The notes under the pieces are model-generated. The model saw only the letters and a list, made by a program, of their open reading frames with translations, was not told where the DNA came from and did not search any database. A stretch of DNA of 60,486 nucleotides from Clostridia bacterium (GTDB taxonomy: Bacteria > Bacillota > Clostridia > Christensenellales > Borkfalkiaceae), in assembly GCA_029062045.1 (NCBI GenBank), contig JAIDQV010000032.1:1-60486 (forward strand). The letters are read 5' to 3'. The position numbers and the translations under genes were made by a program. This document shows, piece by piece, positions 10,740 through 57,647 of the stretch. Every line of letters starts with the position of its first letter. The stretch's first letter is position 1.

Positions 10740-10745
10740 ATGTGC

Positions 10746-11090: not shown

Positions 11091-11117
11091 ATCTGTTTCC
11101 TTCTTTACCCGCGCTAC

Positions 11118-12839: not shown

Positions 12840-14000
12840 TTACTTCATATCTTTTGTCAAAGGAATATCACATTCTTCGATAGTAATCATCTCTTCTTCT
12901 GTAATATTTCCTTTATCCATAAGCCGCTGCGCCTGATGCGTAACAACCGCCTGGAAAGTGTTTCTTGCGGTACGGCCGTTACCGAAGTCTTTATCCCTCT
13001 TTTCATACAGTTCGGTAAATCTGTCCGTCATAAGTTTTTCGGCAGCCGCCGTAAGTTTATAATTATTCTTTTTGCACAAGCCGAAGAATATTTTATAAAG
13101 CTCGTCGGGCGTGTAATCCTCAAAGTCGATAACGGTATTGAACCTTGACTTTAAACCCGAGTTGGTGGCAATTAAGTCCGCCATAGGCTGAGAGTACCCA
13201 GCCATTATAACTACTAACTCGTTACGGTGGTCTTCCATTGCTTTAAGCACTGTATCTATAGCTTCCTGCCCGAAGTCGTTGCCGCTACTGTTGCCTTTGA
13301 GCATATACGCTTCGTCTATAAACAGAACGCCGCCAAGGGCCTTGTCTATGACTTCACGGGTTTTAGGTGCCGTCTGTCCGACGTAACCTGCAACCAAATC
13401 ATTGCGTGCGGTTTCTACAAGCTGACCCTTTTGCAAAATGCCGAGCGACCTGTAAATTTGCGCCATAAGTCTTGCAACGGTTGTTTTACCTGTACCGGGG
13501 TTGCCCGTAAATACCATATGATAAGAGAAGCCGTCGGGAACGGGCAAACCTTTTTCCTGCCTCAGCTTGAAAAACTTTACCTGGTCGACCCATGACGAAA
13601 CTTTGGCTTTAACGCCCGAAAGTCCTATAAGTCCGTTCAGTCTTGCCAAAGCCTCCTCAACGGAAAGCTGTTCAACTTCCTGTTCTTCCGCCTTGGCTTT
13701 GCTTTCAACCGCCTTTTGCGTGTTTGCCGCACCGCCTCTTGCGGGTTGACCGCCAGAAGTCACGCTAGTGCCGTTGCTCTTATTTGTTACCGGGCGCACG
13801 CCGTTCTCGGCTTTTTGCTCGCACTCTTCGGCCAAAGCAATATACTCGTTCTTTTTAGCCGGAAATGCCGCTGCCGCCTGCCTGTACTGCTTTGCCGCCG
13901 CCTTGTAAGACTGCACGGCGACAGACATCCCGCAGCTTGCCTGCTTTTCGGCTTTGTCGAGCATGGTTTTTGCTGCTAATAAGTAATAATCGGCATTCAT
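12840..14000 (-). CDS. AAA+ ATPase, CbbX/SpoVK/EccA-type, with N-terminal MIT/TPR-like helical domain
   Basis: Walker A FTGNPGTGKTTVAR; Walker B GGVLFIDEAY; sensor region VVIMAGY...LKSRF, characteristic of the CbbX/SpoVK clade. The N-terminal ~70 aa form a three-helix, Ala/Lys/Gln-rich segment. Confidence 0.8.
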   Translation of the reverse strand: MNADYYLLAAKTMLDKAEKQASCGMSVAVQSYKAAAKQYRQAAAAFPAKKNEYIALAEECEQKAENGVRPVTNKSNGTSVTSGGQPARGGAANTQKAVESKAKAEEQEVEQLSVEEALARLNGLIGLSGVKAKVSSWVDQVKFFKLRQEKGLPVPDGFSYHMVFTGNPGTGKTTVARLMAQIYRSLGILQKGQLVETARNDLVAGYVGQTAPKTREVIDKALGGVLFIDEAYMLKGNSSGNDFGQEAIDTVLKAMEDHRNELVVIMAGYSQPMADLIATNSGLKSRFNTVIDFEDYTPDELYKIFFGLCKKNNYKLTAAAEKLMTDRFTELYEKRDKDFGNGRTARNTFQAVVTHQAQRLMDKGNITEEEMITIEECDIPLTKDMK

Positions 14001-14007: not shown

Positions 14008-15513
14008 CTATTGCTGAATAAGTCCGAGGTCTTTTTCCAACGATTCGTATTTTGCCTCGTCCTTTTCTTCATTCATATCGGTATATGCCGCAGCCGCGCC
14101 CGCGAAAGTATTCATATTGATTTCCTCGCTGTCCGCTACTGCGCCCGCTACGCCTATCTCATCCAACTGCTCGTTGCTCTTTGCAACGGCTTCTTTAAGA
14201 TAGGTGGCAAGTCCCTGATAATCGGCAAACCGTCCGCCCGTCATCTGGTTTATCTTCATATTGGTAGCTTCGAGGTCTTGCTGAGTAGAGAGCTTGTCTA
14301 TAAGCAACAACTGCTCCTGCAAGGTAGATAACGCATTTCTGTAACGGCGGATAGAATACTGCACGCCGTTACGCTTTGCATTGAGCTGGTCAATCTGTCC
14401 GTCAAGTATAAGACAGTCGGAAGGTGAAGCCGTTTTACGTTTAATAAGTAAAGGCTTTAACTGTGCGTTCAAATCGTTGAGTTCGTCCTGAACGTCGTCT
14501 ATTTTATCATTGTAAGTATCGATGCTCTGCTGTAATGCCTGACGCGTTCTGTTAATGTCGTTAGCCATTTCCGCAGTGCCCATAACGCCGCCGAGTGCGG
14601 TTGCGCCGCCCATTGTCTGCGAAGTCGCCGCCGTTCCCGCCGTAGTAGTGGCAAACGGGTCGCCGAACGCGCCGAAAGCGTCACCCTCGGCAAACGGGTC
14701 ACCCAAAGCACCGAACGCACTGCCTGCGCCCAAAGCCGCCATATCCGCGGCAACCTGGCTCTGTTCTTCGGCTCTGCGCTGATTTGTTTCGGCAATATTT
14801 TCTCTGTAAACCTGCATCTGGTCGTCGCTTACGGTACGCCCGTTGACAAGCTCTGCATTTGTATTGTAGGTTTCCTCGAAAATGGTCGTAGTCTTTTCGC
14901 GTTCAAGCTCGGCCTGTAATCCGTTGAGCTTGTTGACGGTATTGGTTATCTCCATTTTGCATACGTTTGCCTGCGAAATGATAGACCTGTCGGTAGGGTT
15001 TGCGGCGTGTCTTTCACGGAGTTTTTCAAACGCCTTGTTCAAATCGGCGAGCTTTGCATTCTCCTCGTCGATTCTGTCCTGCAATTCTTCCGCACGGGAC
15101 TTTTCGTATGCGATGCCCTGCTTAGCCATTTTGCCAAGCGTTTTTTGTGCCTGTTGCTCGCGCTTTAAATCCGCTTTGGTTTTCTGTCCGCCCATTATGC
15201 AATAGCTCTGTCTTTCGGCAACCGCCTTTTTGATTTTTTCGAGCTTGTTTACAGCCGCCGTGGACTGCTGCTTGCTTAAACATACGCTTACTTCCTGTAA
15301 AAGCGAAAGAATAAGCGCGTCTAACTTCATTACCTCTTCCGAAGATGAATTGCCCTGATTTTGCATTTCAAGCTGAATATCTTTTAAGTATGAAGCAATT
15401 TCTCCGCCGAGACGGTTGCTCATAGTAAGCGCTGTTACGGTGGAAATAATTTGATTTTTATTGTATGTATTTGTTTCCTCTATCTTCTTTTTCTTATTAC
15501 CGAATAATCCCAT
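14008..15513 (-). CDS. Long coiled-coil protein, ESCRT-III/PspA-superfamily-like (two helical halves joined by a Gly/Ala-rich GDPFA-repeat linker)
   Basis: The N-terminus MGLFGNKKKK mirrors eukaryotic CHMP N-termini. Two heptad-rich halves flank the linker AFGALGDPFAEGDAFGAFGDPFA. The C-terminus is acidic and ends in an amphipathic helix, EAKYESLEKDLGLIQQ. Confidence 0.5.
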   Translation of the reverse strand: MGLFGNKKKKIEETNTYNKNQIISTVTALTMSNRLGGEIASYLKDIQLEMQNQGNSSSEEVMKLDALILSLLQEVSVCLSKQQSTAAVNKLEKIKKAVAERQSYCIMGGQKTKADLKREQQAQKTLGKMAKQGIAYEKSRAEELQDRIDEENAKLADLNKAFEKLRERHAANPTDRSIISQANVCKMEITNTVNKLNGLQAELEREKTTTIFEETYNTNAELVNGRTVSDDQMQVYRENIAETNQRRAEEQSQVAADMAALGAGSAFGALGDPFAEGDAFGAFGDPFATTTAGTAATSQTMGGATALGGVMGTAEMANDINRTRQALQQSIDTYNDKIDDVQDELNDLNAQLKPLLIKRKTASPSDCLILDGQIDQLNAKRNGVQYSIRRYRNALSTLQEQLLLIDKLSTQQDLEATNMKINQMTGGRFADYQGLATYLKEAVAKSNEQLDEIGVAGAVADSEEINMNTFAGAAAAYTDMNEEKDEAKYESLEKDLGLIQQ

Positions 15514-15527: not shown

Positions 15528-16424
15528 TTAAGATAATTTCTTGCCGCATCCGGGGCAGAACTGAACTTGACTACTTAACTTTGCACCGCATCTGGGGCAA
15601 TACTGCACGGGCTGGTTGATACCTGCATTACCCGCGTTTTGATTAGCGTTTTGCGCGGGGGCCTCGGTTGAAGGCGCCGTAGGCATACCGCCTATAAGCG
15701 AATTGAGCGCGTCTATTTCCGCACGCTGGGCACGTTCCTTTTCACGCCTGTCCAATTTTTCTTCTTTTCTACGGTTTTGGTTATCGAAGTACTCGGTGCG
15801 CTTATTCTTGTACTCTTCGTTAAAGAAAATTTGCTTTAACGAGAAATCCTCAACGCCGACGCCGTAGTTTGAAAAGGCTTCTGACAAAATTTTTGTAAGC
15901 GCGGTCGATATAAGCGATAACTGGGTATTTACCGTCTGATAGTCGTACTTTTGTAAAACCTCAGCAAGCCTTGTGGTCATTACCTCGCAAGTTTTACTTC
16001 TTATGTACTCGTCTATATCGTCAACGGTAATATCCGTTTTACCCAAATTGGTATAAAGCGCCCAGGGCTGGTTTATTCTTATTCTGAGGTGTCCGTTCAA
16101 GCCGACTGCCGTTTCGCAATTCAGTTCAAAATCCTTGAAAGGAATACCGCCTACTCCGCAGGGTATATCGTAAGTTTTGTCGGCGTTTACACCGATAAGC
16201 TGTAAGCTGTACCCGAACTTTTCTTCTTCCTTGGATTTTACTATCCAGCGTCCGGGAGTGTTTACGGATTTAAGCCCGCCGTTTACTATGTAAATTCCGA
16301 GACAGCCGGGTGCGACTTCCAACGTGGTATCGCGTACGGCAGATGTTAAGTCAATATTCCACATAACGTATTTGTCGCTTGCGGAGATGATGATGTTTCT
16401 TAATTTTTCGCTTTTTCCGAACAT
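15528..16424 (-). CDS. SPFH/Band-7-like protein with C-terminal double zinc ribbon (B. subtilis YdjI / COG4260-like)
   Basis: The N-terminal ~200 aa have the YdjI-like beta/alpha domain layout. This is followed by a charged coiled coil (RRKEEKLDRREKERAQRAE), a low-complexity Q/N/A linker, and YCPRCGAKL...FCPGCGKKLS. Confidence 0.65.
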   Translation of the reverse strand: MFGKSEKLRNIIISASDKYVMWNIDLTSAVRDTTLEVAPGCLGIYIVNGGLKSVNTPGRWIVKSKEEEKFGYSLQLIGVNADKTYDIPCGVGGIPFKDFELNCETAVGLNGHLRIRINQPWALYTNLGKTDITVDDIDEYIRSKTCEVMTTRLAEVLQKYDYQTVNTQLSLISTALTKILSEAFSNYGVGVEDFSLKQIFFNEEYKNKRTEYFDNQNRRKEEKLDRREKERAQRAEIDALNSLIGGMPTAPSTEAPAQNANQNAGNAGINQPVQYCPRCGAKLSSQVQFCPGCGKKLS

Positions 16425-16436: not shown

Positions 16437-17606
16437 TTAATTATTTATTCTTTCAAGTACGTTTTTAATATAAATTGCGGGAACACACATCGCTATGCCG
16501 CCCTCGCTTTTTCCGGGATAAAAAGTTATGACGCCTATCACGTTATTTGCCGCGTCTAAAAGCGCGCCGCCCGAATTTCCGTGGTTTACCGTCATATCCG
16601 TCTGAATTACGAAATCTACGTTTTTAGGATAATCGGTTTTACGGTTGGGACTTGACACGACGCCCTTGGATACGCTTAAACCTATTCCTAGGGGATTGCC
16701 CACGGTATAGACTTCTTCACCGAACGTAACCCCTTCCGTTCTCAGCGAAAGCAATTTGCGGGAAGAAAGCGCTTCGCCGATATTCCCTGTGAAGCACAGA
16801 ACGGCGATGTCAAGTTCGGGCAAGATTGCAAGCGGCATAAGATTATACGTCCGTTTGTCTATACTCGGCTCAAAATTTGCCTCTATGCACTCGGGGGATT
16901 CCCCTACGACGTGCGCATTTGTAATAACGTAACCACCCTGCACCAAAAAGCCCGAACCTTTGCTCAGCATTTTGTTGCGCCCCGACTTAAATACGGCGTT
17001 TATCGAAAGTATGGAAGGCAAAACCTCTTTTACCCTTTCAACGAAACTTCCGCCCTCTGCGGGAAGCTGGATATTACGGTTTTCGCTTACAAAGTCGTTA
17101 TTTCTCTCTGCGTCGCGGGTGTTTATTTTCAAACTGTTATAATCGTAACCCGTACCGCTTGCGCCCACAGACAAGTTTTGCGGCGCATCACCGCCCCAGT
17201 TCTCCGTCTGTAACTTTATACGGCTTGCGGCGTGCCCTGCGTCTGCGGCGATTTTTAACCATTTATGTGCCGTAAGACGGTCGGGCGGGTTGCTGTTTAA
17301 GCAAATTTCGGCATATTTGTACATGCCGTCGGGGTATCCGCGGAAAGCAAGCACCCTGTAAATTTCTTCGACTTCGCCGGGTGCGGAGCTTACCAAGCCC
17401 TGTTCTTTACCTAATGCCACACGGTACAAAACGGCATTGTCCAAAAAGGACGAGTATTTCAAAAATACCGAACATCCGCCGTTTTTCGTATCCCCTGCCT
17501 CGATTTCCGTGTTTTGCGCGGCAACGGAGGTCAACTTTTCACCGCAATAACGGCAAAAGTTGTCTTCGTCGGGGGATTGCTTGTTACACTTTACACAAAT
17601 TTTCAT
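16437..17606 (-). CDS. Zn-ribbon + Sel1-like repeat + trypsin-like (S1C/HtrA-type) serine protease, no PDZ
   Basis: N-terminal CVKCNKQ...FCRYCGEKL. Sel1-like segment YKYAEICLNSNPPDRLTAHKWLKIAADAGHAAS. Catalytic triad context ITNAHVV / LDIAVL / GNSGGALLD. Confidence 0.8.
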   Translation of the reverse strand: MKICVKCNKQSPDEDNFCRYCGEKLTSVAAQNTEIEAGDTKNGGCSVFLKYSSFLDNAVLYRVALGKEQGLVSSAPGEVEEIYRVLAFRGYPDGMYKYAEICLNSNPPDRLTAHKWLKIAADAGHAASRIKLQTENWGGDAPQNLSVGASGTGYDYNSLKINTRDAERNNDFVSENRNIQLPAEGGSFVERVKEVLPSILSINAVFKSGRNKMLSKGSGFLVQGGYVITNAHVVGESPECIEANFEPSIDKRTYNLMPLAILPELDIAVLCFTGNIGEALSSRKLLSLRTEGVTFGEEVYTVGNPLGIGLSVSKGVVSSPNRKTDYPKNVDFVIQTDMTVNHGNSGGALLDAANNVIGVITFYPGKSEGGIAMCVPAIYIKNVLERINN

Positions 17607-17618: not shown

Positions 17619-18755
17619 TCAACGGTCGTTCTTTTGTGATTTTAACCGTTCGGATACGTATGCGGTGACAACGGAATTTAAGTCCGAACCGTCTTTTATG
17701 CCCGCTTTTACTCCGGCTACGTAATATTTAAAGTCGTCGCAAATATAAGTTATAGACCTTCCGCTAAGCCCGTCCGACATATCGGCTAAGTACTCGAAAT
17801 CCAGCTTTTCCTTATATTCGTCTTCAAGCTCCGCAAGTTTGGATTTGAAAAAGCTCAACCTCATATTTTTATCGGGAAGGGGTATGTGAATACGCTTTCT
17901 GAACCTGTCCAAAATGCCGACGTCAAGAAGCTCCATACAGTTTGTGTTGGCAAGTATTAGAAAGGACTTGTTCTGTTTAATGCCGTCCATATTTCTTAAA
18001 AGTGCGGGAACCGCCGAAGCCGAGGCTTTGTCGTCACTGCCGCGCTGTTTTGCTATTTCGTCGAATTCGTCGAAAAATACGGTCAGCCCGCATTTGTTTT
18101 TTTCGGAATAGGAACGGAGCGCAGCAAACACTTTATCGATATTTTTTGCGGTTTCACCAACGTAACAGTTTACAAGCGCGGCTACGTTTACAAGCACGAA
18201 GGGCTGGTTTATTTCCTTTGCAACAGCCTTTGCAAACGTTGTTTTACCCGTGCCCGGAGGGCCCTCTAAAAGAATAGCCTTGTTATCGTTGAATTTATAG
18301 TTGTAATAATCGCCGTAGCGCAAAGGATTAATTACGTATTCCGTAACAGACTCTTTTGCGCTTTCAAGACCTATTACGCCTTCAAAGCCCTGTTCGAGTT
18401 CGTCGGCTTTATAAAACGTAAAGTATTCTTCCATACCTTCGGTATCAACGTCCTGGCTTTCGGTAGCGCAATCGTCGTCTTTATGCTGTACGGTTGGAAC
18501 GGCGCTCTGTCTTACCGGGGTTTGGTTATTAGCCGTAACCGTTATAGCCGCCGCGATAGCTTTAAGCCTTTGGGCGCGGCTGTTCAGTTCGGCCGCTTCC
18601 GCCCCGCTTTTACGCATAGAAAACTGTTCGAGATAGAACGCCGCCTGTTCAAACTTTTTCTTTGCCGTCGCAAGGTTGCCGTACTGCTTTGCCTTTAAGG
18701 CTTCGTCATAGTTTGTTTTAAAATTACCGTATAAGTATTCGTCGGATAAAGCCAT
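17619..18755 (-). CDS. MIT-like domain + classical AAA+ ATPase (Vps4-like architecture)
   Basis: N-terminus YDEALKAKQYGNLATAKKKFEQAAFYLEQF...AELNSRAQRLKAIAAAI resembles the Vps4 MIT three-helix pattern. Walker A LEGPPGTGKTTFAKA; Walker B VFFDEFDE; SRH-like ANTNCMELLDVGILDRFRKRIHIPLPD. Confidence 0.65.
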   Translation of the reverse strand: MALSDEYLYGNFKTNYDEALKAKQYGNLATAKKKFEQAAFYLEQFSMRKSGAEAAELNSRAQRLKAIAAAITVTANNQTPVRQSAVPTVQHKDDDCATESQDVDTEGMEEYFTFYKADELEQGFEGVIGLESAKESVTEYVINPLRYGDYYNYKFNDNKAILLEGPPGTGKTTFAKAVAKEINQPFVLVNVAALVNCYVGETAKNIDKVFAALRSYSEKNKCGLTVFFDEFDEIAKQRGSDDKASASAVPALLRNMDGIKQNKSFLILANTNCMELLDVGILDRFRKRIHIPLPDKNMRLSFFKSKLAELEDEYKEKLDFEYLADMSDGLSGRSITYICDDFKYYVAGVKAGIKDGSDLNSVVTAYVSERLKSQKNDR

Positions 18756-18770: not shown

Positions 18771-20369
18771 TTATTTGTCGTTTTCACTCTTCCATTCGTT
18801 GAGTTTTATAATATCTTCGGCCTGTACAGACGAGTGAATGACTTGAAGCGCTTCTTCAAAATCCTCACCCGATATGTATTTTTCCTGCGTTTTTATTCCG
18901 CGGATTATGGATATTTCCTCTATCCTGTCAAGAAGGTTGGTTATATCCGAGCCGTTAAATCCGTTTGTCTTTTCAACGATTTCGCCCAGGTTTATATCGT
19001 CCCTTACCGCAACCACGCCTTTTTCCGTAATTTTTACAAGGCGCTTATTTATCATATACTCTCTTGCGGGTGCGTCGGGAAGTCCGACGTAAATTTTGGT
19101 GCCGAAGCGTCCCGGTCTTAAAAACGCACTGTCTATATCCCAAGGTTTGTTAGTTGCGGCAATCAAGAAAAGAATGTTGCCCGTATCTTTTTTATAACTG
19201 TCTATACCTTGCAACTGCGCCAAAAATTCCGAACGCAACTGTTTTGCATACTGCGACTTAGTCGACTTGGGCGAAATAGAATCCATTTCGTCAAAATATA
19301 TTACGGCGCAGGGGAACTCTCTTGCCTGTGCAAACAGCGCGCGTACTGCCTTTTCGGTATTGCCAGCGCCCTGGTGCAGTAGGTCGGACGGCTTAACCGA
19401 ACAGAATTTTGCGCCTATTTCGTTTGCTATTGCCGCGGCAATCATGGTTTTGCCCGTTCCGGGAGGGCCGTAAAGGCACAAACCGCCGCCGTTCTTCTTT
19501 TCGTAGCCCTCGAATGCCTGAGGGTTTTTTAGGGGAAGCAATACCTTCACTTCCACTACTTCTTTGACTTGTTCGAGGCCTGCAATATCCTCAAACCTAA
19601 TTGAGGGAAGGCTGTCCCAGTTGAATTTAAACTCGGAAGACGCCCCCGCATCCCCGTTAACAAATTTGTCCTCGGGCGTTTCTGCGGGCGTGTTCGGCTT
19701 ATTCTCGGGTTTGGGACGCACAGTCGTAGCGGGCACAGGTGCAGGTGCGGGCGTAACCCCCTCTACTTGGGGTTGGCGGGTTGGCGTTTCCACCTGCGGC
19801 TGAGCTGCGGCAAACTCTTTTTCGAGTGCGGCAAGGGTGTCGTCCATTTGCAAGCTGTCACGGGAAATCTCGTCGTTTAAAAGCTCGCGGACGTCATCGT
19901 CGCTTATATCGGACACCGAATCCACACTGCTTGAAAACGCACTGTTGTTATTTTTTAACGCCTGTTGAAGCTGAGCCGAAGTGATACTCTGCTGATACAG
20001 CGCCTTCATAAACATCTTTTCGCTGTTGCTTACGTGTATAGCCTTGCAGGTCTTATATACGTTTTCCATAACGCTGTCAAGCGAGTTGACAAACTTCTTG
20101 TTAAGGTGCTGCATTTCGCACAAATCCTTTGCAATAGTAAAGTTTGCAACCATATCTTCCGCCTGTGCAAGGTTAAACATTGCGTTTTTAAGTAAAGCAA
20201 CCATAGCTTTATACTGCGATTCGTTGCCCTTCTTTAATGCCTCTTTGGCCTTTTGCGCGTACTCGTCCCTCTTCCTGGTCAAGGTCACGATAGCACCGTT
20301 CAAAGCGCGCATCGTTTCTTCCTGCTCGCGTTTCAATTTTAACTGTTTCTTAAAATCACGAAATCCCAC
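18771..20369 (-). CDS. ESCRT-III/Snf7-like N-terminal domain fused via Pro-rich linker to classical AAA+ ATPase
   Basis: Residues 1-190 are paralogous to the 189-aa ORF upstream (IVTLTRKRDEYAQKAKEALKKG vs VVTLTKKRDAAFAMVLEARQKG). Pro-rich linker TPAPAPVPATTVRPKPENKPNTPAETP. AAA: LYGPPGTGKTMIA, VIYFDEMDS, SRH ATNKPWDIDSAFLRPGRFGTKIYVGLPD. Confidence 0.65.
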   Translation of the reverse strand: MGFRDFKKQLKLKREQEETMRALNGAIVTLTRKRDEYAQKAKEALKKGNESQYKAMVALLKNAMFNLAQAEDMVANFTIAKDLCEMQHLNKKFVNSLDSVMENVYKTCKAIHVSNSEKMFMKALYQQSITSAQLQQALKNNNSAFSSSVDSVSDISDDDVRELLNDEISRDSLQMDDTLAALEKEFAAAQPQVETPTRQPQVEGVTPAPAPVPATTVRPKPENKPNTPAETPEDKFVNGDAGASSEFKFNWDSLPSIRFEDIAGLEQVKEVVEVKVLLPLKNPQAFEGYEKKNGGGLCLYGPPGTGKTMIAAAIANEIGAKFCSVKPSDLLHQGAGNTEKAVRALFAQAREFPCAVIYFDEMDSISPKSTKSQYAKQLRSEFLAQLQGIDSYKKDTGNILFLIAATNKPWDIDSAFLRPGRFGTKIYVGLPDAPAREYMINKRLVKITEKGVVAVRDDINLGEIVEKTNGFNGSDITNLLDRIEEISIIRGIKTQEKYISGEDFEEALQVIHSSVQAEDIIKLNEWKSENDK

Positions 20370-20382: not shown

Positions 20383-20952
20383 TTAATTTTTCAGTTTGGT
20401 TCTGTCGCCCGTAGCCGAAGCAAACAGCGCAGCCTCGTCCAGCATAGAATCTATCTCGCTATCGAATTCACTGTAATCGTCCTGGCCTATCGACGCCGCG
20501 GCACTATATTCGCCTACCGATAACATTCTGTCGATATTCTCTTTCTGACGCTCGGTTTCGTACATAGCGTGCATGTACTTGTTTTCAACCTGCTTTATGT
20601 TTGCGGTGTGTCTGCTCGCGCTGATAATATCCTCGGAGAGTATACCTATGCTGTTTAAGAAGTTTTGGTTGAGCTCTGCCAAATCGCGTGACTGAACGGC
20701 AAGTTCCATTGTCATAAGCATTCCTTCGGCACGTTTGCAAGCCGCCATAGTCTGCTTTAACAGTCCGCGCGCCTGCTTTTCCTGGGCTTCAAGTCCCTTT
20801 TGGCGCGCCTCCAAAACCATTGCAAAAGCCGCGTCCCTCTTTTTGGTGAGGGTTACCACTTGCAACTTCAAGTCCTTCGTAACCTTCTCAATCCTTGCGC
20901 GGCGCTCGGTTTCTATTTCTTCCTTCGTCTTCTTGTTTTTTTTGCCGAACAT
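20383..20952 (-). CDS. ESCRT-III/Snf7-like (PspA-superfamily) small coiled-coil protein
   Basis: 189 aa. MFGKKNKK N-terminus, a basic N-terminal helical hairpin and an acidic C-terminal tail (DDYSEFDSEIDSMLDEAALFA). The residue pattern is colinear with yeast Snf7 alpha1-alpha3, from my recollection of that sequence. Confidence 0.6.
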   Translation of the reverse strand: MFGKKNKKTKEEIETERRARIEKVTKDLKLQVVTLTKKRDAAFAMVLEARQKGLEAQEKQARGLLKQTMAACKRAEGMLMTMELAVQSRDLAELNQNFLNSIGILSEDIISASRHTANIKQVENKYMHAMYETERQKENIDRMLSVGEYSAAASIGQDDYSEFDSEIDSMLDEAALFASATGDRTKLKN

Positions 20953-20955: not shown

Positions 20956-21459
20956 TCAGTCCCCTTTTAAAATGGTATTTTCTGTCTCGCACATAAGCGC
21001 GTAAATTTTCTGTGTTTCACGGATGATATCCACCGTAACGGAGATATCCGAGCCTAAACCGTGCGCTATACTGTTGCGCATAGAAACAATGTTTCTAATG
21101 GATTTAAGCTGCTGCCCGTCTATAATTCCAAGTTCAAGCGCCCGCTTCCCCCAGCAAACGGCGTTGCCGTCCACAAGCGCTTTCGATTTTTCGTTGAGCG
21201 CGCTGACGTTATCCAAAAATATCAGCACGAGTTTGTCGTTTTCGGGTTCAACCGTTTTAGGTGCCTCCGGAATTTCGTTCCGAACGGGCGGGCTGTCAAG
21301 AACGGGGGCTGAAAAATCCTCTTGTTCTTTAACAGGTTTTTCGGGTTGTTTTTTGACGTCCTCACTCTTCACCGTTCGGCAATAGCGGCATACGGTTACG
21401 CCGTTAAGAAGAATAAAATCTTCACCTCCGCAATTCGGACATACTGATGTATTTTTCAT
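20956..21459 (-). CDS. Zn-ribbon protein with C-terminal HEPN-like (DUF4145-like) domain
   Basis: N-terminal CPNCGG...CRYCRT, an acidic/Pro linker, and a C-terminal helical domain with an Rx4H motif (MRNSIAHG). Overlaps the upstream HAD gene by 4 nt (ATGA). Confidence 0.5.
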   Translation of the reverse strand: MKNTSVCPNCGGEDFILLNGVTVCRYCRTVKSEDVKKQPEKPVKEQEDFSAPVLDSPPVRNEIPEAPKTVEPENDKLVLIFLDNVSALNEKSKALVDGNAVCWGKRALELGIIDGQQLKSIRNIVSMRNSIAHGLGSDISVTVDIIRETQKIYALMCETENTILKGD

Positions 21460-22220
21460 AATTTAACTTGACCTAAAATTTCCCCCACGCTTTTTATTAC
21501 GAACTGCGGAAAGTTTCCGCACCCGTAAAATACGGTTTTTAAATCTTCGGGAAAGTATTTTTTTAATCTTTCGTGCGCCACGGCATAATCGGCTTTACTA
21601 AGCATATTCACGTCGGCGTCGCTATCGCCCGCGGCGATTGTAATTTTATTGTTAAGTCTTGCCTTTATAAGCCGCACCGCCTCTCCTTTGTCCGCAACCT
21701 GCGGATAAAAATAAACTTTCTTGCCGGAGGCAACGCACGCCAAACTACCGTTTTGCCCAAAGTCGCAAACAAATTTTTGCGCGCCTTCGGCGGTTTTACA
21801 ATTTACCTGTATATATCTTTTATCAACTATCTTAACACTGTACTCGGTTTGGCTTAATAAGCGACCGTATAAAGCTAAAATTTCTTCGTTAAACGGCTTG
21901 TATATCCTATCGTAAATTTTCTCCCACTCTCCGTCTGCGGTGCCGTTTACCAAAAGGCGCGCGCCGTTTGCCACAAGCGCATAATTTATCTCAACGCCTT
22001 CCGCCCATTTTATCCGTTTGAACTGCTCTTCCGAGCGGGTGGTCAGCGGAATAAATTCCACCTTTCGGGAAAGCCCGCAAAGTCCGTTATACACTTCGGG
22101 CGGCATATAGCCGTGCTGCTTTCCGTCAATTATTTCAACGCAAACATCTCCCTCGTTTTTATGACGGAAAGAGTATAACAGCGTATCGTCCAAGTCGCAC
22201 AAAAACAGAATATCTTTCAT
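21456..22220 (-). CDS. HAD-superfamily phosphatase (Ter-cluster associated type)
   Basis: Motif I FLCDLDDTLL (DxDxT); late motif AAGDSDADVNM (GDxxxD). Confidence 0.8.
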   Translation of the reverse strand: MKDILFLCDLDDTLLYSFRHKNEGDVCVEIIDGKQHGYMPPEVYNGLCGLSRKVEFIPLTTRSEEQFKRIKWAEGVEINYALVANGARLLVNGTADGEWEKIYDRIYKPFNEEILALYGRLLSQTEYSVKIVDKRYIQVNCKTAEGAQKFVCDFGQNGSLACVASGKKVYFYPQVADKGEAVRLIKARLNNKITIAAGDSDADVNMLSKADYAVAHERLKKYFPEDLKTVFYGCGNFPQFVIKSVGEILGQVKL

Positions 22221-23270
22221 CTAAATATCCGAAATTTTTTGTATTATTCCGCATGCTTTATAATTTTTGAGTGGATACTCTTCTACCGTTACGCCCTTCT
22301 CTTCGGCAAGAGTGTATATGTGTCCGAGATGCGGAAAGTCGTCTAAACTATGCACAAGCATTTTCCCGGGCACTCTTCTAAGTAACACGCGGGTTGCCTC
22401 GCCAATGCTAGGCTTTACCAGGTTTACGTCGTCTATGCCAAAGTCTTTGCAAATGCGGCTAACCTCTTCCAAACCCGAAACACATTCGCACTTTTCTTCT
22501 TCACAGGGGGCGCCGAAATCAAAATACTTTTCAACGGTATCTATAAACCCGTACGTCCTGTCCTTGTCTTTAAGGTGCGAATAAAAAGCCGCGCCGTGAA
22601 AATCCTTTTCACCTATCAAATCGCTGCGCAATACCGTTCGGCTCAAAAGTCCGGACACCGTGCAGTTTAACAGCGAGCTTGCAATTAAAAAATCTTCGTG
22701 CGTGCCGCAAATCTCTGCCGCAAAGGCAGGGTCGGACAACACCGCAAGCCCAGCGTTTAAACCTTTATAACCGTTTACCGCCTTTTTAACCTCGCGTGCG
22801 ATTACGCCCTTGCCCGTCCAGCCGTCTACAAATCTTACGTCTTTTGCGCTATGTCTTTCTAGAATATAATCCAATGCGTTTTTATCTATTCCCCTGTCGC
22901 GGATAATGGAAATAGTGTAATGGGGTACGCATAAATTATATTTTTTATCTAAGTATCTCTTTAATAAAATGCCTATCGGCGTTCCCGCTCTTGCAAGGGA
23001 CACGAGAACGACGTTGTTTCCGTGGAATTTTAATATTTTTTCGGCAGCCGTTCCTACGGCTTGCGCGGTTATCGGGGCGTAACGTTTCAACGCTTCTTCA
23101 TACACTTTTACATACTGTGCGCTAGGTTCGTACTCCAAAGGCAAAGTTTCGGAATAGTGCAGTCCGCCCTGTATAAGCCGCTCTCTTTCATCCGTGCTGA
23201 GCGGTTTTAATTGTCCCGTAATATCTTTTAATAAGATATTAACGTCGTCCTTTTTATAGCTCGAAAACAT
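22221..23270 (-). CDS. PRTase-like protein of the Ter-associated 'StiP' family
   Basis: VVLVSLARAGTPIG and RFVDGWTGKGVI resemble a PRPP-binding loop. The gene is adjacent to a second PRTase, HAD and CitE-like genes, as in ter-linked biosynthetic modules. Confidence 0.6.
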   Translation of the reverse strand: MFSSYKKDDVNILLKDITGQLKPLSTDERERLIQGGLHYSETLPLEYEPSAQYVKVYEEALKRYAPITAQAVGTAAEKILKFHGNNVVLVSLARAGTPIGILLKRYLDKKYNLCVPHYTISIIRDRGIDKNALDYILERHSAKDVRFVDGWTGKGVIAREVKKAVNGYKGLNAGLAVLSDPAFAAEICGTHEDFLIASSLLNCTVSGLLSRTVLRSDLIGEKDFHGAAFYSHLKDKDRTYGFIDTVEKYFDFGAPCEEEKCECVSGLEEVSRICKDFGIDDVNLVKPSIGEATRVLLRRVPGKMLVHSLDDFPHLGHIYTLAEEKGVTVEEYPLKNYKACGIIQKISDI

Positions 23271-23271
23271 A

Positions 23272-24399
23272 TTATCCTTTTACCAAAACAAAGCGTTTTG
23301 TGCCGCAACTGCCGAAAATTTTAATTATATCTTTAAGCGCCGACTCTACATCGCTTTCGGAATCGGTAACTATTACGGCAACATCGTAATATTCGGGATT
23401 GTAGATAAACGTCGCCCTATGTTTGTCGTAAAACCCCGAAAGTCCGTATCCGCCAAATATCGGATAATCTTCTTTTTCGGAAACTGCGATGGGGCTTCTC
23501 GTCGTCGAATGGCTCTTTACACTTTTTAGGGGATAATTGCGCTCAATCTCCGCACCGAAAATTATTGCAGGATACATACATTCCTCGGTACCCAAAACGA
23601 GAATTTTTTCAGCCGAATTTAACTCTTTTGCAAGTTCGTCCAAAAGTCCTTCAGATATGTTTTTAAGCGTTTTTTCGTACTCTGAAGCCTCAACGCCCAG
23701 TCTGGGGTCGGGCAAGGGCCGGGGTGTGTTTATAATTTTGACGTCGGCGGCACATTCGGGCAATTCTGCCGCAATTTTCGGCGCAGTGGCCGAAACGCTT
23801 TCGACTTCCGAAGAATAATCGGAAAAAGGAAGTTTTAAAAGGCTTACGCATTCTATTCCTTTTTCGGCAAGGCGCGCCTCGTTTTCAGCCGAAATCCTGT
23901 CAATTACGCTTGCGGCGATTATCCTTTTCTTCGCCGCCGTAGGGAATTCTTTGATAAGTTTATCAATTATATTGATAAGCGTTTTACCCGTCGTGAACTC
24001 GTCGTCGACGAATATCAATTTGTCCGCGTTATCTATATACTTTGCAATATCTCTTTTTAAAAGTTTTTGTTCCACCGCGTGGCTATGCTCTTCGGAAAAG
24101 TCTAAAAAAGGCTCGCCCTCTTCGCGCTCGCGCGTGGTATGAATATAATCGCAACCGCACAGTACAGCTACTGCCGCCCCTATTGCCGTTGCCGTTTCGG
24201 CAAAGCCTATTACTAAACCGCCCTGCCCGTATTTGCTCTTGATTATTGCGCCAAACGCGTTCATCATATCAAGCGCTTTTAAAGGGCTTACGGGTATATG
24301 CTTTGCCTGCAAGGTGTTCACCAACAGATAGGTGCGTTTTGCGTTGTTGTATCTCTTTGCTATTCTCAAAAGAGTTTTCGCGGAATATTCTTCGTTCAT
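23272..24399 (-). CDS. Phosphoribosyltransferase-family protein with C-terminal Ter-associated (TRSP-like) domain
   Basis: PRPP-binding motif KLIFVDDEFTTGKTL, with a ~200-aa C-terminal extension. Confidence 0.75.
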   Translation of the reverse strand: MNEEYSAKTLLRIAKRYNNAKRTYLLVNTLQAKHIPVSPLKALDMMNAFGAIIKSKYGQGGLVIGFAETATAIGAAVAVLCGCDYIHTTREREEGEPFLDFSEEHSHAVEQKLLKRDIAKYIDNADKLIFVDDEFTTGKTLINIIDKLIKEFPTAAKKRIIAASVIDRISAENEARLAEKGIECVSLLKLPFSDYSSEVESVSATAPKIAAELPECAADVKIINTPRPLPDPRLGVEASEYEKTLKNISEGLLDELAKELNSAEKILVLGTEECMYPAIIFGAEIERNYPLKSVKSHSTTRSPIAVSEKEDYPIFGGYGLSGFYDKHRATFIYNPEYYDVAVIVTDSESDVESALKDIIKIFGSCGTKRFVLVKG

Positions 24400-24400
24400 T

Positions 24401-25360
24401 TCAATCTTTTATGCCGTAAATCTCGGACAGAATAAGTATCCGCTCCGCCCACTTATAATGGCACTTAACTTCGTTCATTCTGTCACCGGAGCTGCTTTTT
24501 TCCACTCCGAATCCGCCGCGGTCCCAGTTTAATATGCTCTTTGCATCGTTGAAATCTTCACGGCGCACTTTAAGACTTTCATAAATATATCTGAGCTGAC
24601 AGGGATGTATAGCCGTTTTACCGATAAAGCCGTTAAGCCTGTCCAATTCCAGCTCCCTTTCAAGCCCCTTTGCCCACGCGCCGTCATCTGCCCCGAAATA
24701 TTCCCATACCGGTCCGGAAATTATATATTTATCCGAAAATACGTTTATAATGTCGGACAGCACGCCGCTTAAAACGCAAACGTCGTACACGGTTTTGTCA
24801 ATCGGCCGTCTCAATCCGAAAATATTGCTGAAATCGTTTACGCCTACGCGTACGTTGAGGATATATTCGGACACGTCCGCCAATACCTCTTTAATTTTTA
24901 AAAGGCGTTCCCTGCGCGTCACTATGCCGGCAACCCCGGGACTTTCGATAATTGGCATAAAATATACCCGCAAGTCGGAATTGCTGTTGATGCTTAAAAT
25001 AATATTTTTATACTCGTCAGCGTCGGGAAAATCGAATTTAGGTAAAATATACCCCGTCAATATATCCGAAACGCCGTTCAAAAACGCGTGAACGTGTTGC
25101 AAGTGCCTAGGGCTTCTCACCCGCACGAAAAGCAGCACGTCTTTGCGGTTTAACCCTGCATTTTTTAACTCTGTTAAAGTACTTAAAAGCTGCTTCTCCG
25201 CCTCTTCGACAGCATCGTCCGCAATCGAATCTTCAAGGCAAAAACAAACAGAAGTCAACGCCTGTATTTCTTTGTTTATTATTTTTTTAGCAACTCCCTT
25301 TCTTAGGGCAGGCACATATAAAAGTCCTCCGACCTTGTAGGCAAGATAATCTTTATCCAC
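24401..25360 (-). CDS. HpcH/HpaI aldolase / citrate-lyase beta (CitE)-like C-C lyase
   Basis: GGLLYVPA...VCFCLEDSI matches the CitE N-terminal pattern (LFVPG...DLED). Other motifs: IESPGV, GVNDFS, AIHPCQ. Confidence 0.7.
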   Translation of the reverse strand: MDKDYLAYKVGGLLYVPALRKGVAKKIINKEIQALTSVCFCLEDSIADDAVEEAEKQLLSTLTELKNAGLNRKDVLLFVRVRSPRHLQHVHAFLNGVSDILTGYILPKFDFPDADEYKNIILSINSNSDLRVYFMPIIESPGVAGIVTRRERLLKIKEVLADVSEYILNVRVGVNDFSNIFGLRRPIDKTVYDVCVLSGVLSDIINVFSDKYIISGPVWEYFGADDGAWAKGLERELELDRLNGFIGKTAIHPCQLRYIYESLKVRREDFNDAKSILNWDRGGFGVEKSSSGDRMNEVKCHYKWAERILILSEIYGIKD

Positions 25361-25375
25361 TAACCTTTTCCCCTG

Positions 25376-27196
25376 TCAATCTTCTACTTCTATGCCATAA
25401 CCGTTGCTGATTTTTTCTATTCCGTCGTTTACGCCGAGTATTGTGAAATTAATTTTCCAGCTTCCCTTGTAACGGTAGAACTCAAACAATAAATTGCTAA
25501 CCGTAACGTCATACGACGACGGGTCGAATACATACAGAACTTCGCCCACCTGTAGCGTAAACTTTGCACTGTCGATTTTGGGAACAGCCCTCTTGCGGGA
25601 ATTTTCCAAACTCAATGCCGCAACTATAAATTTAATTCTGTCGGTTTCAAAATCCGTTTTGCTTAAATTTACAGTTATGTCCGAGTAATTTTCAAACTCG
25701 CGCAACTCGATTGATTTATCCAAAGAAACGTTGTTGCCTGCAAATACCAAATCTTTTTCCGACAGTACCTTCCCTTTTGTTGTAACAGGGAATATATAAA
25801 CCCCCGCCAACGCATCGGCCATATTGGCGCTGTATTCGATATGAATATATATCTTTTCGTCTTCGTTGTCTATAGGCGCCCGCTGACCGCGTGTAACAAT
25901 AACTTCTTTGGTCGCCTTTTTACGTTTGTTTTTGTTCTTAGGCGCCGGCGCGGGTGCAGGCTCGGGCTCAGGCTCGTAAGAATAATCGGGGGTATCATCC
26001 CACACGATAGTCCTTCTGTTGGTAGAACGTCTGCGAACAGGTTCGGGCTCGGGCTCGTAATCGGGTTCGGGCTCGTAATCACTCTCGATATCCTCGTCCA
26101 CGTCGGGAACGTTCTCTTCGGCTTGAACGGGTGCCTCTTGCTGTTCTTCGGCAGGTTGCTCTTCCTCGGGTTCCGCCACTTCGGGCTGCGCAGGCGCAAC
26201 CTCAACGGGTGCAGGCGCAGGTGCGGGTTCAAGCTCTTCATCCGAAACCATAAGCCTGTCAAACACCGTTTCGGGGTCGTAGCAATATTCAAGCCCCTCG
26301 AAAAACTTTTTAAAAGTACGCTCTATAGCGGCTTTGCCCGTATAGTTTTCAATTAAATACTCAACTTTCTGCTTCTTCTTTCCCGTCTTGCGCTCCATAT
26401 CCAAAACATAGCGCACCTCTTCCTTGGTGTCGCAAGCAACGCTTCGGGAATTTGTGGAAGATATGAACACAAACGCTTTGCAATTATCTATTGCTTTTTT
26501 TATCGACGTCCAATAATTTTGCGCAGCGTTACGGCCGTGTTGCAGGTTTCTTATTGCAACAAAGCAAGCAAGTCCGTTTTCTTCAAGGTAGTCCACAAGT
26601 TTTTGAACTGTTTCCATATCCTTGCTGGAATAACATATAAACGCGTCGCGCGGAAGCTCGGGGTCGTATACGCAGTCGTTTACCTTTTGCGACTCTTCAT
26701 CGTATTTGGTACGGTATGTAGAGTAAAGCTCAAGGTCTGTGTTTTTATACGCCCGCTCTATAAGATTGCATACAGACATCATATTGCGGCCGTTCAAAGA
26801 TTTCAGCGAAAAATCAAGCACGGTACTAATATCGTCCATATTGCTTTTGACGTCTATAGAATCGAGAAAACTTATTAACGCAGCGTCGTTCTCCTCATTT
26901 GCCGCTTCAAAAAAAGACGCGAAAAAATCTTGCGGAAGATAACCTTTTATCTCTCGGCACAGTCTTAGTATTTGCGCGCTGTCGGTATATTCGTCGCTTA
27001 TTTTTTTCCAAAGCTGCGTGCGCAAATTGGCAACTTTTTCCTGCTTTTCTTTATCGAGAAGTTCGGAAAGCGCCTCGGCTTGTTTTACGAGGGTATCCTC
27101 TTTAAACTGTGTACGGCAAAACTTGCAACGACAGCCGCTTTCGGTTTCTATAATTTCTCCGCCGCATTTAGGACAGGTAAGTTCAGTCAAGTTCAT
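25376..27196 (-). CDS. Zn-ribbon + helical domain + TIR domain + disordered Pro/Glu linker + degenerate TerD-like domain
   Basis: CPKCGG...CKFCRT. The TIR signature DAFICYSSKD...AFVFISSTNSRSVACDTKEEV includes a candidate catalytic Glu. The linker carries EPEP/APAP repeats. The C-terminal 175 aa are colinear with TerD (DLVFAGNN...FEFYRYKGSWKINF...GYGIEV) but lack the GDxxTG/GDDE Ca2+ clusters. Start refined to the ATG at 27196 (RBS AAAGGAAAT). Confidence 0.7.
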   Translation of the reverse strand: MNLTELTCPKCGGEIIETESGCRCKFCRTQFKEDTLVKQAEALSELLDKEKQEKVANLRTQLWKKISDEYTDSAQILRLCREIKGYLPQDFFASFFEAANEENDAALISFLDSIDVKSNMDDISTVLDFSLKSLNGRNMMSVCNLIERAYKNTDLELYSTYRTKYDEESQKVNDCVYDPELPRDAFICYSSKDMETVQKLVDYLEENGLACFVAIRNLQHGRNAAQNYWTSIKKAIDNCKAFVFISSTNSRSVACDTKEEVRYVLDMERKTGKKKQKVEYLIENYTGKAAIERTFKKFFEGLEYCYDPETVFDRLMVSDEELEPAPAPAPVEVAPAQPEVAEPEEEQPAEEQQEAPVQAEENVPDVDEDIESDYEPEPDYEPEPEPVRRRSTNRRTIVWDDTPDYSYEPEPEPAPAPAPKNKNKRKKATKEVIVTRGQRAPIDNEDEKIYIHIEYSANMADALAGVYIFPVTTKGKVLSEKDLVFAGNNVSLDKSIELREFENYSDITVNLSKTDFETDRIKFIVAALSLENSRKRAVPKIDSAKFTLQVGEVLYVFDPSSYDVTVSNLLFEFYRYKGSWKINFTILGVNDGIEKISNGYGIEVED

Positions 27197-27242
27197 ATCA
27201 TATTTCCTTTTCAGAAGAAATAAAAAGCATTCTTTATAAAAT

Positions 27243-27278
27243 GACAAAAATATAGGCAGCTATAATATGCCTATATTT
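27243..27278 (-). terminator. Intra-cluster hairpin + T-run (possible attenuator/partial terminator after the terD pair)
   Basis: On the minus strand: AATATAGGCA-tattatagc-TGCCTATATT followed by TTTTGTCATTTT, in the only long (~100 nt) gap of the cluster. Confidence 0.45.
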
Positions 27279-27298
27279 TGTCTTAGGATATAACTAAA

Positions 27299-27889
27299 TT
27301 AAACGTTAACTCCGTAACGACGGCAAAGAGCTTCAAGTCCGCCCTGATAGCCCGAACCTACGGCGTTGAACTTCCAACCGTCAGCGCTTCTGTAAATTTC
27401 GCATACTACTACTGCGGTTTCGGTAGAGAATTCTTCTCCAAGGTCAAATCTTACGGCTTCGGTGCCGTTTTCGTCGTTTTCGCTGTTTATTTTACATACT
27501 CTTACGTATGCGTTTGAAACCTGACCGAAGTTTTGACGTCTTGCTTTTCCATCGTAAATAGTTACGGTTATAACAATTCTGTCAACGTGTGAAGGTATTC
27601 TCGAGAAATTAATAATAATCTGCTCGTCGTCGCCGTCATCACTGTTACCGCCGGTGGTATCATCGCCAAGCGACCTTACCGCACCCGTATAATGCGCCTG
27701 ATTTCCGTAGAAGATAAAATCTTCGTCCGACGCAACTTTGCCGTTTGCACCGATAAGAAATGCGGAAGCATCCAAATCGAAGTCATAGCCGCCCGAATAG
27801 CGGTTAGGGTCCCAACCGAGCCCTACGAGAGCCAGTCTCATTTTTTTGTCTAAGCTAACTCTTTCACCTTTTTTTAAATTAACACCCAT
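27299..27889 (-). CDS. terD: TerD-family stress protein (Ca2+-binding)
   Basis: MGVNLKKGERVSL...GLGWD...DLDASAFL...GDDTTGGNSDDGDDEQI...EIYRSADGWKFNAVGSGY. This is the canonical TerD pattern, including both acidic Ca2+ motifs. Confidence 0.92.
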   Translation of the reverse strand: MGVNLKKGERVSLDKKMRLALVGLGWDPNRYSGGYDFDLDASAFLIGANGKVASDEDFIFYGNQAHYTGAVRSLGDDTTGGNSDDGDDEQIIINFSRIPSHVDRIVITVTIYDGKARRQNFGQVSNAYVRVCKINSENDENGTEAVRFDLGEEFSTETAVVVCEIYRSADGWKFNAVGSGYQGGLEALCRRYGVNV

Positions 27890-27917
27890 TTTTCTATCTC
27901 CTTTAATTTTTTACTTA

Positions 27918-28520
27918 TTACTGAAAGCGTGCAGCCATATCGATGATACTGTTATCGTTAGTAGGCTGACCTATGGCGTTAAATTTCCACTCGCCCTGGC
28001 TGCGGTACAGTTCGCCGACAACCATAGCCGTCTTGCCATAGTAATTTTCGGAAAGATTAAATTTGCAAAGCTCTCTTCCGTTTCTGCCGTCGCATACGCG
28101 GATGAATGCGTTTCTGATAAGTCCGAAGTGCTGTTTACGCTCGTACGCCTGATAAATAGTTACGACGAAAACAATTCTGTCGTATATCTGGGGTAATGCG
28201 TCGAGATTTACGAAAATCTGCTCGTCGTCGCCTTCGCCGGCACCCGTTAAGTTGTCGCCCTGGTGAACTACCGTTCCCGTATAGTGGCGCAGGTTATTAT
28301 AGAATACAAGGTCCTTCTTATCAACAAGTTTACCGTTCTGGCAAAGTATCGCACTTGCATCGCAGTCTATATCTGCGGGAGGTGCGGAAAACAACGAAGA
28401 GAAGAAACCTCTCTTTTGTTCAACTTCGTCCCAACCGAGTCCGACCATTACGTTTGTTAACGAATCGCCGCCCTCTTTGCGCAAATTGATTTTTTGCCCT
28501 TTTACTAAATTAACGCTCAT
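27918..28520 (-). CDS. terD: TerD-family stress protein (paralog)
   Basis: MSVNLVKGQKINL...GLGWD...DIDCDASAIL...GDNLTGAGEGDDEQI...ELYRSQGEWKFNAIGQ. Confidence 0.92.
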   Translation of the reverse strand: MSVNLVKGQKINLRKEGGDSLTNVMVGLGWDEVEQKRGFFSSLFSAPPADIDCDASAILCQNGKLVDKKDLVFYNNLRHYTGTVVHQGDNLTGAGEGDDEQIFVNLDALPQIYDRIVFVVTIYQAYERKQHFGLIRNAFIRVCDGRNGRELCKFNLSENYYGKTAMVVGELYRSQGEWKFNAIGQPTNDNSIIDMAARFQ

Positions 28521-28576
28521 ATTTTTCTCCTTTGTTTTATTAATTTATACGGATAAGAAATCCAATTTAATTAGAT

Positions 28577-49182: not shown

Positions 49183-49299
49183 AGTTTGACCCTCGTCTCA
49201 CCTATAAAACCAACTTACAATTTTTATAGCAAAATTGTTGCTAGTCATTTTTTATTTTATATTTCAATTACAATTATCTATGCAAGCCGTAGAAATTTC

Positions 49300-51897: not shown

Positions 51898-51922
51898 AAC
51901 CACCTCGTTCAAACGCCTCTTT

Positions 51923-57623: not shown

Positions 57624-57647
57624 AGCTTAACTCCGTATTGTGAATAG

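Follow-up and report, generated by a model that had tools for sequence, protein, structure and literature searches.

The DNA analysed here, called the window below, is a 60,486-nucleotide stretch of contig JAIDQV010000032.1 from a Clostridia bacterium (assembly GCA_029062045.1). [quoted passage not shown] A likely role for this module, and one that we infer, is the ATP-driven remodelling of a membrane-associated polymer tied to stress or immunity.

Close homologues of the target number 47 at E ≤ 1e-3, the few with a source name being from Clostridia, and an exhaustive profile search of 1.8 billion representatives returned 225 clusters at the same threshold. Three profiles were used for distant comparisons: A1 and A5 represent close relatives (A5 the target-like subset), and A2 is a second-iteration profile of 101 diverse members, all recruited at E ≤ 2.4e-7 with full-length alignments. 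When the 177,635 sequences of the PDB were searched with A2, human CHMP2A was matched at E 8.2e-5 over nearly its full length (query 5-152 on 2-145), with CdvB2 (0.016), CdvB (0.078) and CHMP3 (1.2) further down; four different ESCRT-III proteins in a single register are thus found among only 12 matches. Scanning the A2 members singly showed that 23 of the 101 match the Pfam family Snf7 (PF03357), with a best E-value of 9.6e-7, while any other family is matched by at most two of them. The sole Snf7 match that was inspected individually, in P0106, scored 20.4 bits, under the gathering cut-off of 27.3.

Profile-profile comparison by hhalign was done with an ESCRT-III reference made by aligning the PDB sequences of CHMP2A, CHMP1B and CHMP3. 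A2 reached 86.7 % against this reference (P 4.4e-6, 123 columns) and A5 67.9 % (P 4.9e-5), whereas against E. coli PspA plus Synechocystis Vipp1 the values were 0.6 and 1.2 %, respectively. These figures agree with the original prediction, made from the sequence alone, that the protein fits Snf7 better than PspA; the Snf7 profile matches on which that prediction had made its case depend appear after iteration, with A2 and in the 23 relatives. As a calibration, human CHMP2A reaches archaeal CdvB only at E 0.15, and the target family is at a distance comparable to the one that separates established ESCRT-III proteins from different domains of life. Neither of the CHMP and PspA alignments detected the other, and hhalign yielded no information when the narrow A1 profile was set against CHMP2A or PspA as single sequences. 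Because of the CHMP and CdvB matches, the Snf7-specific Pfam matches, the negative PspA/Vipp1 control and the CHMP2A-CdvB calibration, the family is placed, on sequence grounds, on the Snf7 side of the superfamily.

An AlphaFold2 model of the target computed with the family alignment (pLDDT 76) has helices at residues 10-51, 55-112, 119-146 and 162-182, a predicted arrangement that matches the alpha1, continuous alpha2/3, alpha4, disordered linker and alpha5 layout of ESCRT-III and contains the long helical hairpin that had been anticipated. In a Foldseek search of the PDB, CdvB of S. islandicus ranks first (E 0.06, probability 0.98), and CdvB2, CHMP1B, CHMP2A/3, Vipp1 and Asgard ESCRT-IIIB are also listed. 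A Megaviridae Snf7-family protein comes first in the viral library BFVD (probability 1.00, TM-score 0.56). Since no Foldseek E-value is significant, the modelled structure is supportive of ESCRT-III membership rather than decisive.

The target gene runs from ATG to stop and has a Shine-Dalgarno-like AAGGGGA 8 nt 5' of the ATG; a gap of 3 nt separates it from the upstream gene. A reading frame of 189 residues had been proposed here with no strand given; the frame was confirmed and assigned to the minus strand, and the strings quoted with the proposal (MFGKKNKK, TKDLKLQVV...GLLKQ and DDYSEFDSEIDSMLDEAALFA) were all found in the translation. The protein combines the N-terminus MFGKKNKK with a basic alpha1-alpha2 hairpin and an acidic alpha5 (EFDSEIDSML). 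Residues 1-95 carry a net charge of +8 (pI 9.9) and residues 96-189 one of -8 (pI 4.5), as expected from the basic-N/acidic-C asymmetry noted earlier. For the single sequence such a split is equalled by 290 of 10,000 shuffles; it is kept across the family, with mean charges of the N- and C-terminal halves of +8.0 and -6.9 in A1 and +8.1 and -9.1 in A2. In the target subgroup, the alpha5 motif EFDxEIDxM/L is kept and the C-terminus ends in a conserved basic/aromatic [KR]x[KR][FYI], with no canonical MIT-interacting motif of type 1 or 2 (MIM1, MIM2). A larger and more distant subgroup (about 195 residues, N-terminus MGLFKSK) has as its tail a MIM1-like amphipathic helix, D-E-I-E-x-x-L-x-x-L-K-K-K-L. 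Two other families came up for the target, Phage_TAC_5 (E 0.011) and YrzI; both are below threshold and were set aside as chance matches, there being no phage context and no relative in IMG/VR or the plasmid database PLSDB.

The target lies in a tight co-directional minus-strand array that extends from about 31.3 kb to 12.8 kb, in which the seven genes of the module are separated by gaps of 7-15 nt. From 5' to 3', with the basis of each assignment in brackets, they are:

20383..20952, minus strand: target, stand-alone Snf7-type ESCRT-III-like protein, 189 residues (ATG-to-stop open reading frame)
18771..20369, minus strand: fusion of an ESCRT-III-like domain to AAA, 532 residues (BLASTP, hidden Markov model (HMM), Pfam AAA, AAA_lid_3, Vps4_C)
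17619..18755, minus strand: Vps4-like ATPase with MIT-like N-domain (residues 5-70), linker and classic AAA, 378 residues (AlphaFold2, Foldseek, Pfam/NCBIfam, motifs)
16437..17606, minus strand: zinc ribbon, Sel1 repeat and trypsin/HtrA-like serine protease, 389 residues (Pfam Trypsin_2 5e-24, Zn_Ribbon_1, Sel1)
15528..16424, minus strand: SPFH/Band-7 protein with C-terminal zinc ribbon and N-terminal MFGK, 298 residues (Pfam Band_7 6e-11, Zn_ribbon_3)
14008..15513, minus strand: coiled-coil protein of unknown family with N-terminus MGLFGNKKKK, 501 residues (Pfam scan, paralogue tests)
12840..14000, minus strand: SpoVK/CbbX/EccA-clade AAA+ with MIT-like N-domain, 386 residues (NCBIfam, hhalign)

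The two AAA+ genes that follow the target had been described, again from the letters alone, as carrying an ESCRT-III-like and an MIT-like N-terminus, and both descriptions held. The 532-residue protein consists of a paralogous ESCRT-III-like domain (32 % identity to the target, E 4e-12 in BLASTP; HMM matches spanning residues 7-181), a Pro-rich linker, a classic AAA domain, an AAA lid and a Vps4_C-like helix, the latter scoring 22.6-23.6 bits against a gathering cut-off of 21.3. Modelled with 50 orthologues, the N-terminal 78 residues of the 378-residue ATPase form a three-helix bundle (AlphaFold2 pLDDT 89.4). Its top three Foldseek matches are MIT domains of Sulfolobus Vps4/CdvC, including one in complex with archaeal ESCRT-III (probability 1.00, TM-score 0.66-0.69), followed by those of spartin, Vps4p, VPS4A/B, MITD1 and NRBF2; the E-values for this short domain are 0.15 or higher. 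The 386-residue AAA+ protein has an N-terminal domain homologous to it (hhalign 88.9 %). When sequence profiles of both ATPase N-termini were compared with the PDB, no MIT domain and just weak TPR-like noise was obtained, and a homologue search with the N-terminal 147 residues of the 378-residue ATPase gave nothing at E ≤ 1e-3. The AAA domain of that ATPase (Pfam AAA, 8.6e-31) has intact Walker A and B motifs, GPPGTGKT and VFFDE, and a Y-V-G pore loop, which reads NCY(V/I)GET in most orthologues and NCLVGET in that of locus L010. The features of Vps4 are divided over two proteins, with MIT on the 378-residue ATPase and Vps4_C on the 532-residue fusion. The 386-residue protein matches NCBIfam spore_V_K at 276 bits, under the cut-off, and also EccA and CbbX.

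A locus scan with one genome per species yielded 16 loci (L001-L016), all from gut metagenome-assembled genomes (MAGs) that are labelled Clostridia, Eubacteriales, Christensenellaceae, Subdoligranulum and, in one case, 'Bacilli'. The order of the seven genes is retained in at least 10 of them, and three further loci are complete but for the coiled-coil protein or the SpoVK-type AAA, of which no homologue was detectable. The second ESCRT-III paralogue is the variable element. It is fused to a classic AAA domain in the window and in L001-3, L005 and L007, to a RuvB-like ATPase with RuvB_C in L006, L008, L010 and L011 (about 850-900 residues), and to an FtsK/SpoIIIE motor in L009 and L012 (about 625 residues). 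In L013-L016 it is a stand-alone protein of 191 residues, and an FtsK motor is instead joined to the MIT-SpoVK ATPase (about 905 residues) in L013, L014 and L016, L015 ending before this gene. Fusions of the paralogue to RuvB-like ATPases with RuvB_N and RuvB_C, sometimes with a NERD nuclease, or to FtsK were also seen in P0102 and P0152, and NERD is added in longer family members elsewhere. Because the paralogue is fused to RuvB-like or FtsK motors, or FtsK is found on the MIT-SpoVK protein where the paralogue stands alone, a DNA translocase is a recurrent and swappable component of the module.

Three loci of the more distant subgroup were examined, and all are in operons similar to the module. 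Two of them encode an SPFH protein with a zinc ribbon, two small proteins, the ESCRT-III-like protein, an AAA ATPase, a trypsin-like protein and a BrxL-like protein, with a large TPR-TIR protein adjoining. The third encodes Band_7_1, a protein of 237 residues, the ESCRT-III-like protein, an AAA ATPase, a TIR-FHA protein, a PP2C phosphatase and a kinase.

An N-terminus of the type M(G)(L)FGK(K) is common to the target, the SPFH-zinc ribbon protein and the coiled-coil protein, which are otherwise unrelated, and it is conserved in their orthologues. The N-termini of CHMP proteins have a similar LFGK-type motif. The common motif might anchor all three to the membrane, or might be a tag by which the ATPases or the protease recognise them. 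The 501-residue coiled-coil protein was considered as a third ESCRT-III paralogue and rejected, since sequence and HMM comparisons gave no match to the family. Its residues from about 255 to 315 form a Gly/Ala-rich low-complexity stretch with DPF, DAF and FG motifs (GDPFAEGDAFGAFGDPFA), of which DPF recurs in the orthologues of L001, L003, L005 and L007; in eukaryotes, DPF motifs are ligands of adaptin appendages.

Upstream of the module, the array in the window continues with the following co-directional genes:

20956..21459, minus strand: zinc ribbon protein with a weak HEPN-like C-terminus, 167 residues (HEPN_MAE_28990, E 7e-5, below cut-off)
21456..31327, minus strand: Ter-type stress cluster of HAD, StiP+PELOTA, PRTase_2+TRSP, C-C bond lyase, ZnR-TIR-TerD (ZnR, zinc ribbon), two TerD and P-type (Ca-type) cation ATPase genes

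The gene for the 167-residue protein is directly 5' of the target and shares 4 nt with the HAD gene. As L001 and L002, the closest loci, are the only ones in which it is conserved, it is an uncertain member of the module. The larger cluster, which we take to be the set of Ter-linked genes that Anantharaman, Iyer and Aravind described in 2012, accompanies the module in the window and in L003 but in no other locus, and the association is for that reason facultative; in L009 and L012, the module likewise has TIR-TerD-like genes at its flanks. Within the cluster, an unusual fusion protein of 623 residues (25376-27247, minus strand) carries an N-terminal zinc ribbon, TIR, a long linker that is acidic and rich in Pro and Glu, and TerD at the C-terminus. 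A sigma-70-like promoter with 12 of 12 consensus positions (TTGACA, 17 nt, TATAAT) is located at 31399-31371 on the minus strand, just 5' of the gene for the P-type cation ATPase. With this perfect promoter at the head of the array, the genes from the cation ATPase through the Ter cluster to the ESCRT-like module could be transcribed together, as a unit of about 18.5 kb. The GC content of the module is the same as that of its flanks. Directly 3' of the module (7446-12629, minus strand) are genes for a response regulator with REC and HD-GYP-type (HD_5) domains and for a hybrid histidine kinase of 1097 residues with a periplasmic SBP_bac_3 sensor; the two may regulate the cluster as a pair or have no relation to it. 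Elsewhere in the window, a defence island of low GC content (48004-59976, minus strand; 0.29-0.37 versus about 0.45-0.48 in the remainder) contains genes for Shedu SduA_C, DUF6119, a type III Res helicase-endonuclease, an N6/N4 DNA methylase and an AAA_21 (AbiEii/OLD-like) ATPase. PADLOC assigned no known defence system to the module as a whole and left the target unmatched. IetAS was rejected as a candidate: the IetA model fits only the generic AAA core (148 bits, PADLOC), and the protease of the module is trypsin-like and not a subtilase.

A mechanism consistent with these observations would start with polymerisation of the target on the cytoplasmic face of the membrane, with the M(G)(L)FGKK motif and the basic hairpin of alpha1 and alpha2 making the contact. 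Like YdjI for PspA in B. subtilis, the SPFH-zinc ribbon protein would be its platform at the membrane. By co-polymerising, the fused paralogue would tether a hexameric motor to the filament, this motor being RuvB-like or FtsK in sister loci, and the MIT-AAA ATPases would attach to the acidic alpha5 and to the C-terminal tail and use ATP to remodel or disassemble the polymer, in the manner of Vps4 and CdvC. Deployment in an envelope-stress or anti-phage setting is suggested because Ter and TIR-TerD genes are in the same apparent operon and TIR and BrxL-like genes are located near distant relatives. A more specific proposal, possible though rather doubtful, is that of a true bacterial ESCRT-III/Vps4-type effector arm, in which TerD (Ca-binding) and/or TIR sensors would cause a Snf7-like copolymer to assemble at the membrane, on the SPFH platform; the motors (AAA, RuvB-like or FtsK, with or without NERD) would then repair, pinch off or clear DNA at a damaged or phage-attacked membrane, and the MIT-AAA proteins would recycle the polymer.

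A number of observations weigh against an ESCRT-III/Vps4-type system acting on membranes. A Pfam/NCBIfam scan of the target itself (E ≤ 1) gave neither Snf7 (PF03357) nor PspA, and among the two to three PDB matches of A1 and A5, CdvB2 and CdvB are below significance (E 0.17-0.44, with CdvB2 at 0.18 for A1); phmmer with the target against the PDB returned nothing significant. The link to Snf7 hinges on a profile from a second iteration, made of helical proteins rich in Lys and Glu, and the PDB search with this profile, A2, also lists designed helical proteins at E 0.01-0.06 and has a large HMMER bias term. All Foldseek E-values of the target are 0.06 or higher, and BAR domains are interspersed with the ESCRT-III matches. 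The ATPases do not clearly fall within the Vps4 clade: their PDB sequence matches are headed by p97/VAT, and their NCBIfam CdvC scores of 132-163 bits are far under the cut-off and similar to those for Cdc48 and PAN (for the 378-residue ATPase, CdvC 132 bits versus a cut-off of 650, PAN 130 and IteA 138), below the level of a CdvC equivalog. Vps4_C was not found in the C-terminal 86 residues of the 378-residue ATPase at E ≤ 10. Pore loop 1 of the 532-residue protein (residues ~330-340, LLHQGAGNTEK) contains no aromatic residue, and neither does the corresponding LL[HMQR]QG[AL]G of all its AAA-type orthologues; because of this conserved feature, substrate threading by this ATPase may not be of the usual kind. 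The RuvB-like, FtsK and NERD fusions point to a DNA-related activity beyond classical ESCRT models. Lastly, a transmembrane helix was predicted in none of the seven module proteins, and for this reason the membrane association of the module is one that we infer throughout.

Some of these points would also fit a generic coiled-coil or BAR-like helical protein that resembles ESCRT-III in composition and has no common ancestry with it: the Foldseek E-values are not significant, BAR domains score alike, and the make-up is helical and Lys/Glu-rich, with designed helical proteins turning up in the profile search. Such an explanation is hardly credible in view of the four ESCRT-III proteins found in one register among the 12 PDB matches of A2, the specificity of the Pfam matches for Snf7, the negative PspA control, the Snf7 or CdvB protein that is the top structural match in each of two independent libraries, and the MIT-AAA proteins that are the genomic partners. 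That the protein is a divergent PspA/Vipp1-type protein, acting as an ordinary phage-shock-like effector, would suit the bacterial host, the SPFH-zinc ribbon partner known from the ydj operon of B. subtilis and the surrounding stress genes. It is very improbable, as the target has no match to PspA_IM30 (PF04012), which is not among the families matched by more than two of the 101 relatives either; as the hhalign values for PspA plus Vipp1 are close to zero and those for CHMP are not; and as a length of 189 residues with an MFGKK N-terminus is unlike PspA.

A third alternative accepts the ESCRT-III descent of the target and questions the membrane. The polymer would then be a cytoplasmic filament or scaffold for an immune or stress complex, and the ATPases and the protease would act on this filament or on DNA and not on lipid. 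The lack of predicted transmembrane segments, the fusion of the paralogue to RuvB-like (plus NERD) and FtsK DNA motors in related loci, the recurrence nearby of TIR, the BrxL-like ATPase, the FHA/PP2C/kinase set and TerD, and the defence island in the window all fit this picture. We regard it as unlikely, because the SPFH/Band-7 partner and the ESCRT-III-like FGK N-terminus favour a membrane, every ESCRT-III superfamily protein that has been characterised works on membranes (PMC7619361, PMC8281802), and FtsK-type motors work at membranes too. With the DNA-motor and nuclease fusions, a non-membrane or a membrane-plus-DNA role is conceivable. For the target itself, assignment to the Snf7 branch is the reading preferred here.

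Among known systems, the archaeal Cdv/ESCRT machinery (CdvB with CdvC/Vps4) provides the best structural matches, CdvB for the target and the CdvC MIT domain for the N-domain of the 378-residue ATPase. The archaeal Meth_adaptin ESCRT loci encode a protein that combines SPFH, coiled coil and zinc ribbon (Makarova et al. 2024; PMC10936438), a notable parallel to the Clostridial module. Unlike the archaeal systems, the module is hosted by bacteria (Clostridia MAGs), and CdvA, winged-helix/ESCRT-II-like and adaptin-like proteins were not detected in it. Its MIT domain is on the 378-residue ATPase, whereas Vps4_C is on the 532-residue ATPase, in which an ESCRT-III-like domain replaces MIT. It furthermore adds an MIT-SpoVK-clade AAA, a trypsin-like protease, the fusions of the paralogue to RuvB-like and FtsK motors, and a linkage to Ter and TIR genes. 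Of the eukaryotic ESCRT-III proteins, CHMP2A is the best profile match of the target family, the common register beginning with K-T-P-E-E-L at the start of alpha1, and the basic-N/acidic-C asymmetry and the alpha1-alpha5 layout are common to both; the module differs in the low identity of the target (about 10-15 %), the tail of the target subgroup, which does not have a canonical MIM1 or MIM2, and the lack of ESCRT-0, -I and -II. The PspA-YdjGHI system of B. subtilis belongs to the same superfamily and likewise combines a Band-7 partner with a C-terminal zinc ribbon and a stress-associated setting. YdjI, which recruits PspA to the membrane, has this Band-7-zinc ribbon architecture, and the partnership of such SPFH proteins with PspA is known in Firmicutes (PMC11237479). 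In contrast to PspA/Vipp1 systems, the target is on the Snf7 side in sequence and the module contains MIT-AAA ATPases, which bacterial systems lack according to a 2025 review (PMC7619361).

In the words of the same review, a Vps4-like ATPase 'appears absent in bacteria', which have only the PspA/Vipp1 branch of ESCRT-III (PMC7619361), and ESCRT components beyond PspA have been reported in archaea 'but not in bacteria' (PMC10936438). Ravi et al. (2024) described Snf7-clade proteins in some bacteria, together with Vps4-like AAA+ genes that were transferred from archaea (PMC11237479). Their cases comprise a Vps4-like protein with a TPR-6TM protein in place of Snf7, a Snf7-RND fusion in Actinobacteria, PspA plus Snf7 in Deltaproteobacteria and Bacteroidetes, and operons with ABC transporters (PMC11237479). 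None of these equals the Clostridial module, with its SPFH protein, trypsin-like protease and three ATPases, or its fusions, and a search of the literature on ESCRT-III/Snf7 in stress and anti-phage contexts gave no account of it. The module is here classified as a bacterial ESCRT-III/Vps4-like system with a rearranged architecture, because the target misses the Pfam Snf7 threshold, the ATPases miss the CdvC cut-off, and MIT and Vps4_C are on separate proteins.

In conclusion, a bacterial operon that pairs Snf7-type subunits with MIT-AAA ATPases would qualify the view that bacteria have none. If this is true, the partnership of ESCRT-III with MIT-AAA ATPases is not limited to archaea and eukaryotes, and it either predates the split or was acquired from archaea and rebuilt by gut Firmicutes; the module thus bears on the timing of the ESCRT-III/Vps4 partnership or would show archaea-to-bacteria transfer in the gut. 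It would also offer a compact bacterial system in which ATP-driven ESCRT-III remodelling can be dissected. The DNA-motor fusions and the TIR and TerD neighbours suggest that ESCRT-like membrane machinery has a connection, as yet unexplored, to stress or immunity in bacteria, which would parallel the ESCRT-mediated membrane repair in eukaryotic cell-death pathways.

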